Origin: a virus
Taxonomy: Duplodnaviria > Heunggongvirae > Uroviricota > Caudoviricetes
Virus record (IMG/VR): IMGVR_UViG_2695420699_000007
DNA length: 24,270 bases
Strand: one strand, 5' to 3'
Positions 1-3,000 of this stretch are shown piece after piece. Position 1 is the first letter of the stretch, and each line of letters opens with the position of its first letter. Position numbers: made by a program.

Positions 1-3000
1 CAGATGGAAAAAATCACAACAGGTGTGTCATACACCACGTCAGCGGTGGGGACGGGATACTGGTTACTGCAGCTGCTGGACAAAGTCTCTCCGTCCCAGT
101 GGGTGGCAATAGGTGTGCTGGGAAGTCTGCTGTTTGGCCTGCTGACGTATCTGACTAACCTGTATTTCAAAATCAGAGAGGACCGGCGTAAGGCGGTGCG
201 GGGAGAGTAAAGTGATGAAGAAAAAATACGAACTGGTTGTTAAAGGGATAAATAATTACCCGGATAAGATTACTGTTACTGTGGCACTGGAAATTGGTGG
301 GTATCCGTCACTGTTGTTGCCAGATGTGGCGATTAGTCTTGACCGTACTGAAGGTGCCACGCTGGAGTTTTACGAAGCTGAGGCGAAAAAGCAGGCGAAG
401 CAGTTTTTCATGGATGTTGCTGCCGGGTTATGTGAAGGGGATGGTCCGTTGCCGGAAAAGCGGCCCATCATTTTAGAGGCGCAGGATGTGTTGATAACCT
501 ACAGAGGAAAACTACCGGGAATAATTACTGGTTCTCTGAAGACTCCACCGCTGGCCTGAAGACTTAATATATCCAGGGATTTGAAATCGATAAACCCTGA
601 TAAATATCCATGAACGCAAAAATCAGATACGGCCTGTCGGCTGCCGTTCTGGCGCTGATTGGTGCAGGGGCGTCTGCGCCTGAAATCCTCGACCAGTTTC
701 TTGATGAAAAGGAAGGTAACCACACCACAGCATACCGTGATGGTGCGGGTATCTGGACCATCTGCCGTGGAGCCACCCGGGTGGATGGTAAGCCTGTTAT
801 TCCTGGCATGAAGCTGTCGAAGGAAAAATGCGACCGGGTTAACGCCATTGAGCGTGATAAGGCGCTGGCATGGGTGGAGAAAAACATCAGAGTGCCACTG
901 ACCGAACCCCAGAAAGCGGGGATTGCGTCATTCTGTCCGTACAACATTGGCCCCGGTAAGTGTTTCCCGTCGACGTTTTACAGACGGATTAATGCTGGTG
1001 ACCGCAGGGGAGCATGCGAGGCGATTCGCTGGTGGATTAAGGACGGTGGCAGAGACTGCCGTATTCGCTCAAACAACTGCTACGGTCAGGTCTCACGGCG
1101 TGACCAGGAGAGCGCGCTGGCGTGCTGGGGAATTGACAGATAAGTAGAATATTTTGCTGAAAAATGCGGTTTGCTCACACGGGCGGATAACACGAAATCC
1201 TGCGAACTGGCAAAAACTAAGTGAATAAAAGTAAAACCCCGTTTGTTGGCCGCAAGCGGGGTTTTGTGTTTCCTGACTCCGGAAAAGTCAAAGGAGAAAG
1301 TGTGTTTGATTTTAGCAAACTGATTCGGGAGATTCGAATGATGGCTGAAAAATTATCCACCTGGAAGTTCATCCTTATCTGGCGGGTGTTTGTGATTATG
1401 GCTTCCGGTTATTTCATTGGTCAGATACGCTGGTGGTGAAATGAACCGCGTACTGTGCGTGGTCATCATTGCCCTGCTGGTGGCCTGTGGTGCGCTTAGT
1501 CTGGGGCTGAATCATTACCGTGATAACGCCATAACCTACAAAGAGCAGCGCGATAAAAAAGTCAGTGAGCTGGAGCTGGCAAATGCAACCATTACTGATA
1601 TGCAGCAGCGCCAGCGTGATGTTGCTGCACTTGATGCCAGATACTCGAGGGAATTAGCCGATGCGAGAGCTGAAAATGAAACTCTGCGCGCTGATGTTGC
1701 CGCTGGTCGTAAGCGCCTGCGGATCAACGCCACCTGCCCCGGTACCGTGCGTGAAGCCACCGGCACCTCCGGCGTGGATAATGCAACCGGCCCCCGACTG
1801 GCAGACACCGCTGAACGGGATTATTTCATCCTCAGAGAACGGTTGATGACAATGCAGAAGCAGCTGGAAGGGGCGCAGGACTATATCCGCACTCAGTGTA
1901 CTAAGCAGGCTTTTTATTATCCGGAGGATGTATGAAGAAATTACAGGTAACGGTAAAACCTTTTCAGGGAACAATTCCGTTCCGTGTTTTGCAACATGGC
2001 CGTGTTCTGCTTGAAGAGGTGTTCAGAGGTAAATGCACTGAATGTTATTCACGAACATATGAAGTGAATGCCACGCATGAAGAATTCACCGTTGAGTGTG
2101 TGATGAATACTGATAAATGCCGAATGGTATCCGCTGAATTACAGCCAGTGTGTTGAGCGACCTTATTATCCATGCGCGGTATTGTCGCCGTATTCCTGCA
2201 TTAACAGAGACCGCAGCCCGACAGGGAGACTCCTCTGCGAGAGTGTGCGGGGATAATCAAAAACGATACACACCGGGGTTTACCGCGTAAACGGAGCGCG
2301 GCGTTCTCCCCTCATGGTCGCCCGTCCGGTGCGATGGTGGAAGAAACTGGAATCTGTTCAATAAAAAAACTGCCGTGTTGGAGTCACAGCAGTAATGTAC
2401 TGATTGGGTAGAAGATTATTATTGTTATGCTTTATTTTTATTCTATATGGCTGATTATTTCAATTCGGAATTAATACAGCTAATGTCTGTGATTTTTTAT
2501 AAATTCAGCAATATAAAGAAATAGTTATATGAACAGCCATCGCAGAGCATACTGTGTATCATTCTTTTTTATAGTCAACTGACGGGCATATTTTATGTCT
2601 GCTGCCAGCTCCCGGCGGCAAGATTCAATGACCCACGCAGAAAAATTACCTGAACCTTTCAGGTCAAGAGCGATGTTAATTTGTTCAATTATCTGGTTTG
2701 GAAATCGGATGTTGCGGGTTGTTGTTCTGCGGGGCCGGTTTTTCGATGACATTTTCTTTCCTCTGGTGACAAGCTATATGGCGAGGATTTTTCATGGCTG
2801 TGCTTCGTACGTTACCGGGCAGAATCAAAACTCTGAACACCCGGCGGGTGAATATTCTGAAGGGTGAACAGCGTCGTGTCAGTGGCAGTGCCCGGGTTTC
2901 CCTCAAACGTCGTATCTGGCGGAGGGATGCCGGACACTGTTGTCTCTGTAGACGCGTGGTTGACCTTTGTGACAGTGAACTCGATCACCGCATTGCACTT

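Follow-up and report, generated by a model that had tools for sequence, protein, structure and literature searches.

The closest described counterpart of the locus analysed here is the gene for a small RNA (sRNA), HnrS, in the prophages Sp9, Sp10 and Sp12 of Escherichia coli O157 Sakai. In the Hfq crosslinking (CRAC, crosslinking and analysis of cDNA) tables of Tree et al., 2014 (PMC4104026), the interval ECs1786...ECs1788, which runs from Rz to the ylcI homologue of Sp9, is the 15th most Hfq-crosslinked intergenic region, with 639,881 versus 179 reads in sample 1, nearly all of them in the minus-strand column, and the peaks named EcOnc12, EcOnc11 and EcOnc10 (Sp9, Sp10 and Sp12) have an area of ~33 million. 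These three identical RNAs were renamed HnrS by Poudyal et al., 2026 (PMC13502914), who describe a 66-nt RNA whose start was mapped by differential RNA sequencing (dRNA-seq) and whose end was placed at an intrinsic terminator by Term-seq, with confirmation on Northern blots. HnrS is expressed in uninduced cultures (PMC13502914; tables of PMC4104026). It represses hha by pairing at the ribosome-binding site (AGAAG), as demonstrated with compensatory mutations, and the final 15 nt of mazF have a perfect complement in HnrS, a pairing that according to the authors has no functional consequence (PMC13502914). Here we analyse positions 2157-2793 of a 24,270-nt stretch of phage DNA (IMG/VR record IMGVR_UViG_2695420699_000007; hereafter the window), which constitutes the late region of a lambdoid, Shiga toxin (Stx)-phage-like prophage.

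The region of interest lies at the junction between the lysis and the DNA-packaging genes and is composed of three independent units: a GC-rich conserved element, hnrS, and the minus-strand gene ylcI. As an overall explanation, we consider it quite probable that a published sRNA gene, a gene for a predicted ribbon-helix-helix (RHH) protein and a structured element of the late mRNA together account for the locus. HnrS and the YlcI family are already known, and the published HnrS largely explains what had drawn attention to this region, while the GC-rich element is a candidate new structured RNA.

The hnrS gene in the AT-rich segment

The stretch between the upstream gene and the ylcI stop codon (2157-2524) falls into a GC-rich part and an AT-rich part (GC 0.56-0.58 over 2150-2349 and 0.26-0.31 over 2350-2549), and its largest open reading frames (ORFs) are 46, 35, 34 and 25 aa. 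Both this division and the lack of any ORF of at least 60 aa had been pointed out in a reading of the sequence alone, which also suggested that a small RNA might be hidden here. That suggestion was borne out: the minus-strand 66-mer at 2363-2428 agrees at every position with the hnrS copy in Sakai Sp9 (NC_002695.2, 1779648-1779713), in a prophage that is 98.7% identical to the window over 2172-2800. By its identity to this characterised locus, window 2363-2428 is hnrS, the gene for the Hfq-dependent sRNA formerly called EcOnc10/11/12.

Placing the crosslinking data on this sequence takes a coordinate correction, since the 2014 table is off by about +140 nt from NC_002695.2 near 1.77 Mb. We estimated the shift between genome versions at +140 to +160 from one anchor, the EcOnc03 probe, which lies 5 kb away, and calibrated the minus-strand read column on ryhB, oxyS and sroC versus spf, ssrA and micA. 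Once shifted, the 48-nt EcOnc12 peak (1779522-1779569 in the old coordinates; PMC4104026) falls at about window 2377-2424 on the minus strand, inside hnrS.

The described pairing features can be found in the window copy. The 15-nt mazF complement, CTACCCAATCAGTAC, occupies positions 18-32 of the RNA and is its longest perfect complement to K-12 mazF, ending at the stop codon. The seed CUUCUACC, which adjoins this stretch, pairs over 8 nt with GGUAGAAG at -11 to -4 of K-12 hha and is carried by a single-stranded, A/U-rich 5' half with A-R-N repeats (AAU AAU AAU). The RNA ends in a 3' U-tail that belongs to an intrinsic terminator at 2362-2393 (minus strand; stem ACUGCUGUG/CACGGCAGU, then U7). 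A terminator scan gave a minus-strand stem of 9 pairs at 2393-2369 followed by T7 at 2368-2362, and the fold has an energy of -16.5 kcal/mol (z -3.85 against shuffles). The hairpin at 2362-2392 had earlier been credited to ylcI; it is real, yet it is the terminator of hnrS and not one dedicated to ylcI, although it probably also stops transcripts that read through from ylcI. Upstream, at 2434-2463 on the minus strand, a promoter-like site (TTGAAA, 18-nt spacer, AAAAAT, with TAGAAT as an alternative, overlapping -10) predicts a start at ~2427-2431, compatible with a 66-nt RNA. It lies in the rest of the AT-rich segment, a spacer between the ylcI stop and hnrS (2429-2524; GC 0.26-0.32) that would be part of the ylcI 3' untranslated region (UTR) if ylcI is read through.

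The AT-rich part (2340-2530) occurs as near-identical copies (at least 99% identity) in 71 phage records, and beyond these we found one variant only, 86% identical, on the IMG/VR contig L133. There the -35 TTGAAA, a TAnAAT -10, the seed and the terminator are all kept, and the terminator stem has U-A where the window has U.G, so that pairing is maintained on the minus strand only. The hnrS copy of L133 itself is 91% identical over 68 nt and is followed by ylcI.

Some points weigh against this assignment. The promoter-like match is at chance level for the region (3 found versus 2.0 expected). The exact ends of hnrS in the window, the 5' end included, are those suggested by the terminator, the promoter-like site and a length of 66 nt, as published. 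The identification as HnrS itself rests on the locus coordinates, with their shift of ~+140 taken from a single probe, and on the described pairing features. An alternative that we regard as quite improbable would make the AT-rich stretch nothing but the 3' UTR and terminator of ylcI, with the Hfq signal coming from the end of the ylcI mRNA. It fits with the weak internal promoter match and with the lack of any terminator between the ylcI stop and that of hnrS, but the identical Sakai sequence has a primary 5' end in dRNA-seq and a 66-nt Northern band, and acts when HnrS alone is expressed (PMC13502914). Moreover, the 48-nt Hfq peak is restricted to the distal part (PMC4104026), and the L133 variant retains the -35 and -10-like hexamers of hnrS.

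With its own promoter and intrinsic terminator, hnrS would be expected to make the 66-nt Hfq-dependent HnrS in the lysogen, and HnrS would silence host hha, the gene for Hha, through seed pairing at the ribosome-binding site. The Sp9, Sp10 and Sp12 copies share with the window the 66-nt sequence, the position between Rz and the ylcI homologue, the strand, the terminator and the complementarity to mazF and hha. The window differs from Sp9 by an additional 74-aa ORF (1932-2156, plus strand) that separates Rz from the conserved element; the hnrS sequence does not differ.

Other prophage sRNAs resemble HnrS in kind. AsxR/AgvB and the Pas sRNAs of enterohaemorrhagic and enteropathogenic E. coli (EHEC and EPEC) prophages are likewise short, Hfq-binding, expressed in the lysogen and encoded antisense to the late operon at cargo sites. 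Unlike hnrS, they are found downstream of pR'/stx or beside the holin gene rather than at the lysis-packaging junction, and they have no sequence similarity to it. We considered and excluded AsxR/AgvB, whose loci are near stx; the Pas sRNAs, whose loci are near Q and the holin gene, except for PasB, which lies among structural genes and whose probe is absent from the window; and lambda PreS, LPR2 and 6S, which are located in the early-left operon or near pR'. The Rfam models for AsxR, AgvB and Esr41 had no match in the window, and HnrS is apparently not represented in Rfam.

A 25-aa plus-strand ORF at 2334-2411 ends in NVLIG*, as does MazF, a consequence of the 15-nt stretch identical to mazF that HnrS uses for pairing. 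Past these 15 nt, no further similarity links hnrS to mazF (18/19 nt).

The conserved element at the lysis-packaging junction

Only the first ~190 bases of the ORF-free stretch (2157-2350) are widely conserved. They contain the element proper (2173-2352, plus strand), a non-coding sequence that we regard as a candidate structured RNA of the late mRNA. With or without a downstream ylcI, the element is present in about 400 phage records (77-100% identity), and we collected 85 distinct variants. Its edges are sharp and its flanks unrelated on both sides, with 33 upstream and 35 downstream flank classes. It always lies between the lysis genes, with their cargo, and the packaging module, and has the orientation of the lysis genes in every annotated context. 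The packaging modules that follow are of the HK97 type (HNH/terS), the lambda Nu1/A type, the 933W/Sp5 type and the Fels-1 type, and in some lambda-type phages the 3' edge is ~75 nt from cosN. The window has a single copy by BLAST, and a scan of GTDB species with an exact 21-mer returned only Escherichia, plus contigs that look like contaminants.

A ylcI gene follows the element in 41 of 88 distinct contexts, at a distance of 49-906 nt, and the gap in between may be empty or hold a small ORF, a TonB-like ORF or other inserts. In two relatives, for example, a plus-strand gene fragment annotated as 'TonB family protein' takes the place of hnrS (L003, 3345-3671; L012, 2747-3127). These differing occupants define a variable cargo slot, of which the AT-rich segment is the occupant in the window. 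L133 has ~650 bp between element and hnrS, with an AT-rich insert that starts with a second minus-strand terminator abutting the 3' edge of the element, which is further evidence that the right edge is a hot spot for insertion. The inserts beside the element would be cargo expressed in the lysogen: hnrS, ylcI, TonB-like ORFs and DUF1398 genes on the right and bor on the left. Insertion on either side explains why the sequence-only reading saw an 'accessory island' here. That description suits the AT-rich part with hnrS and ylcI, which is variable cargo; the GC-rich half is the opposite, a fixed landmark of lambdoid late regions.

RNAalifold predicted long plus-strand helices for the element, and we refined the structure by hand into helices P1-P8. 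The 5' domain (2179-2269) is a long interrupted hairpin made of P1 (2179-2185/2263-2269), P2 (2191-2201/2245-2255, plus 2204-2205/2243-2244), P3 (2212-2216/2235-2239) and P4 (2217-2219/2224-2226). The 3' domain (2275-2352) contains P5 (2275-2278/2308-2311), the variable hairpin P6 (2283-2287/2297-2301), P7 (2317-2321/2331-2335) and P8 (2324-2329/2347-2352), which would form a pseudoknot with P7. All are on the plus strand.

Across the variants, the proposed pairs are kept in 98.0% of 3761 cells, versus 34-62% when the partners are slid, and nine pairs show double changes. Lambda and the K-12 prophage DLP12 have a compensatory C-G to G-C transversion pair in P2. Pairing is also kept through double changes in P6 (CCGCG/CGCGG to CUGUG/CGCAG), P7 (GUCGC/GCGAU to CUCGC/GCGGG and to GCCGC/GCGGU) and P8 (GUCCGG/CCGGAC to GUCCUG/CAGGAC). 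The signal depends on the strand: the plus strand reaches 97.9% pairing and the minus strand 87.6%, since many changes are C-G to U-G or U-A to U-G, and in 59 distinct variants of the 5' domain the corresponding figures are 98.8% and 87.9% of cells. With a column-shuffling null that preserves relatedness, the consensus fold of 2173-2352 has a z of -3.0 for the plus strand, which none of 300 shuffles equalled, and of -0.6 for the minus strand. Where a paired column carries a transition allele, the pair survives in 17 cases and is lost in 7 (p 0.03; 9 to 1 in the 5' domain), whereas unpaired columns have no comparable bias of C/T over G/A changes (20 versus 15). Folded as a single sequence, the 5' domain (2173-2295) has a z of -2.0. 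Altogether, these comparisons support, but do not prove, the view that the element is structured as RNA within the late transcript.

A structure and covariance search of the ORF-free stretch had been proposed at the outset. It yielded a plus-strand consensus fold but no known family: across the whole window nothing reached the gathering score in Rfam 15, and searches of 1800-3500 and 2165-2435 gave only chance-level hits (E up to 10). A literature search with sequence strings from the element found no mention of it. We rejected a minus-strand RNA structure on the pairing and z values given above. An alternative outer helix seen in the single-sequence fold (2173-2181 with 2280-2288) was also rejected: 933W-type variants are unable to form it, and nothing compensates for the variation at position 2178. 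Similarly, a Chi-like reading of GATGGTGG (2333-2340) was dropped because the positions that differ from Chi vary among phages.

The 5' domain also occurs by itself. It is present in lambda between bor and lambdap78 (NC_001416, 46885-46986), in DLP12 of K-12 between borD and ybcV (NC_000913, 579026-579124), in ev099-type phages, and upstream of iss on ~590 IncF (ColV-type) plasmids. The bor promoter region of lambda and HK630 and the region upstream of iss include the 5' domain, 80-82% identical to that of the window, and the 3' domain is missing from lambda. In HK630, a minus-strand promoter, Pbor (TGGACA-15-TACAAT), is annotated inside the 5' domain and presumably drives bor. The same hexamers are present in lambda and DLP12, mostly in loops of the proposed structure. 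They are missing from the window, which has CGGTCT...TACGGC at these positions and no leftward gene, and also from the iss plasmid copy and from most variants; a consensus scan found no promoter-like match within 2157-2350. On one iss plasmid (L155, NZ_CP032263.1), the 5' domain lies at 1201-1295, ~170 nt upstream of the serum-survival gene iss, and carries changes that break P2 and P3 pairs. Such changes, here in a single example, would be expected of a copy that does not lie in a late operon and has been freed from the RNA constraint.

Several considerations weigh against an RNA function. The minimum free energy of the full element as a single sequence is no better than that of shuffles (z ~0). 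The variants compared differ little from one another (80% mean identity after thinning), which limits the power of covariation, and the helices were tested on the same sequences from which they were derived. The IMG/VR variants were gathered with a pattern that lies inside the element itself. Finally, the minus-strand promoter within the 5' domain of lambda and 933W-type variants implies that at least part of the element acts at the DNA level in those phages.

We tentatively propose, with roughly even chances at best, that the element represents an undescribed family of structured RNAs in the lambdoid late transcript. It would act in cis, through RNase processing, mRNA stability or the binding of a factor from host or phage, and set the relative expression of lysis and morphogenesis genes, and its edges would be preferred insertion points for cargo. 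The element would be transcribed within the Q-antiterminated late mRNA and fold into a two-domain RNA. Our guess is that it would then serve as a processing or stability site, for example an RNase III-type site or a barrier to exonucleases, and it would uncouple the decay of the lysis mRNA from that of the packaging and head mRNA. As a functional analogy only, RNase III hairpins such as the T7 early-region sites and lambda sib are also long interrupted hairpins, of ~20 stacked pairs, between phage cistrons. The element has no sequence relation to them and differs in its second domain with the possible pseudoknot.

The main rival, which we think rather unlikely though it deserves serious weight, is that the element has no function as RNA and is a block of DNA homology at a module junction, kept alike by recombination, and/or a remnant of the promoter region upstream of bor/iss. 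Its position exactly at a mosaic joint with so many flank classes, the promoter annotated in HK630, the travel of the 5' half with iss on plasmids that have no late operon, and the unremarkable fold of the full-length single sequence all speak for it. The preservation of pairing on one strand (97.9% versus 87.6%; z -3.0 versus -0.6) and the compensatory double changes in P2, P6, P7 and P8 speak against a role in DNA only. In addition, unpaired columns do not share the C/T over G/A bias, and the window and most variants have neither the promoter hexamers nor a leftward gene. A small protein encoded by the element is very improbable: records such as VT2-Sakai, VT2phi_272 and PhiR40_1 have ORFs annotated across it, in some cases as 'hypothetical protein' or 'Rz-like spanin', but these ORFs vary in strand and frame, the longest stop-free stretch is down to 38 aa in some variants, the window ORFs are at most 46 aa and match no family, there are 1-nt and 9-nt indels, and there is no 3-nt periodicity (entropy by codon phase 0.372, 0.356 and 0.354).

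YlcI, a predicted ribbon-helix-helix protein

The minus-strand gene next to hnrS (2525-2752) encodes a 75-aa protein that scores above the curated cutoffs of Pfam DUF3950 (PF13132; E 8.9e-16, 57.9 bits, cutoff 25) and NCBIfam YlcI_YnfO_N (NF041551; 37.8 bits, cutoff 30) and also matches PHROG 949. On these matches it is a member of the DUF3950 YlcI/YnfO family, the assignment given in the sequence-only reading. The gene has its own Shine-Dalgarno sequence (GAGGA, 2759-2763, 6 nt from the ATG) within the 41-bp spacer (2753-2793) that separates its start codon from the divergent start of the HNH gene at 2794; in both respects the earlier description was correct. The sole promoter candidate, CTGACA-17-CAGAAT at 2882-2854, lies within the HNH gene and is a weak match to the consensus.

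We found 253 homologues, all of them close and mostly from E. coli. Their N-terminal 50 residues are nearly invariant and include a basic arm, the motif RNIRFP and two helices. The C-terminal tails diverge, because the 3' end of ylcI runs into the cargo slot. The AlphaFold2 (AF2) monomer model has helices at residues 19-32 and 34-73, with the strand region as coil. From the strand-helix-helix pattern of the conserved core (residues 12-50), we infer an Arc/Mnt-type RHH fold, which reaches significance in no test. The motif can be placed in gapless register with the strand and first helix of Arc (RNIRFPNQIIEQINIA versus FNLRWPREVLDLVRKV), an alignment that is not significant. Weighing against the fold, hhalign of YlcI with Arc gives an E of 0.034 and a probability of 1.5%, the best Foldseek analogues of the model are RHH-like TCP domains with E >1, and the confidence of the model is low (predicted local distance difference test, pLDDT, 69.7). 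A sequence search found no relative of YlcI in the PDB.

Arc and Mnt of phage P22 are nonetheless the most similar described proteins. They too are small and have a strand with the motif N-x-R-x-P, then two helices with a G-x-S/N turn, and their genes also lie inside a late region and are read independently of it. YlcI differs in that it has no significant sequence or fold match and in that no antirepressor gene adjoins it in the window. A small basic protein, YlcI would most likely bind DNA as a dimer, and its gene would be read against the late operon at times other than lytic growth. That the minus strand is expressed independently in the lysogen, as the sequence-only reading also expected, is borne out by the published HnrS of the identical Sp9 locus and by the K-12 homologue of ylcI, which is transcribed in RNA sequencing (RNA-seq) data as part of a convergent ybcW-ylcI excludon (PMC12288877).

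It is improbable, in our judgement, that YlcI is instead not a DNA-binding repressor but a packaging accessory factor that works with the terminase or the HNH protein at cos, or the antitoxin-like partner in a two-gene module. In favour of a packaging role one can cite that ylcI adjoins cos and the small terminase gene in both Nu1-type and HNH/HK97-type modules and that the family is also present in capsid-forming phage-inducible chromosomal islands (PICIs; PMC13612085), and RHH domains are found in antitoxins too. A packaging gene, however, would not be expected to oppose the late operon, as ylcI does on the minus strand in 41 of the 41 element contexts that have it, and ylcI is missing from 47 of the 88 contexts, including 933W/Sp5-type phages. 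Furthermore, no conserved partner gene lies next to it, and its C-terminal tail is unconserved.

Outside the long plus-strand ORFs, a 246-aa minus-strand ORF with a TTG start lies 3' of the Lom homologue (23508-24248) and has no Pfam match. If it is real, ylcI is not the sole minus-strand gene in the window.

Genomic setting and significance

The window shares 96-99% DNA identity with Stx-converting phages of the YYZ-2008/Sp9 type, and the genes around the region of interest are all on the plus strand. Upstream are those for the holin (4-210), a YdfR-like protein (212-559), lysozyme (610-1143) and Rz (1417-1935; Pfam Phage_lysis, E 9e-50), followed by the 74-aa ORF mentioned above. Downstream are the genes for the HNH endonuclease (2794-3159), the small terminase (3450-4013) and the large terminase (4010-5671), and the head and tail genes, which end at a Lom homologue (22561-3220, sic).

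Further features were seen on both sides of the junction. Between lysozyme and Rz (1144-1416), the window has only a 72-aa ORF (1221-1439), where the close relatives YYZ-2008, Sp9 and VT2-Sakai have the antirepressor gene ant, which marks this gap as a further variable slot. Directly 3' of the HNH stop, a very G/C-rich inverted repeat (GACCCGGGGGGGG...CCCCCCGTC; 3160-3226) may be a strong hairpin or part of cos; a match of this repeat to Rfam mir-K12-10 was spurious (E 0.84). Between the HNH and small terminase genes, 3251-3379 contains five copies of an (A)ATGTTAAC / GTTAACAT motif, direct and inverted, which are probably binding sites for the small terminase in the cos region.

HnrS is a multicopy prophage sRNA that counters silencing by Hha/H-NS and adjusts both motility and type III secretion in EHEC and EPEC, and the recognition of hnrS here means that this prophage adds one more copy to its host. 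YlcI is a very common prophage protein, and the RHH prediction makes its function directly testable. The new value lies in the neighbouring element, which is sharply bounded, non-coding, structured in a strand-specific manner and common to phages whose packaging modules are of at least four kinds. Even lambda and K-12 have it, as its 5' domain, but Rfam does not include it and we found no account of it in the literature. If the element is a functional RNA, it would be a new regulatory feature in one of the best-studied operons, would account for the accumulation of cargo genes at this position, and would offer a handle on the balance between the expression of lysis and assembly genes.

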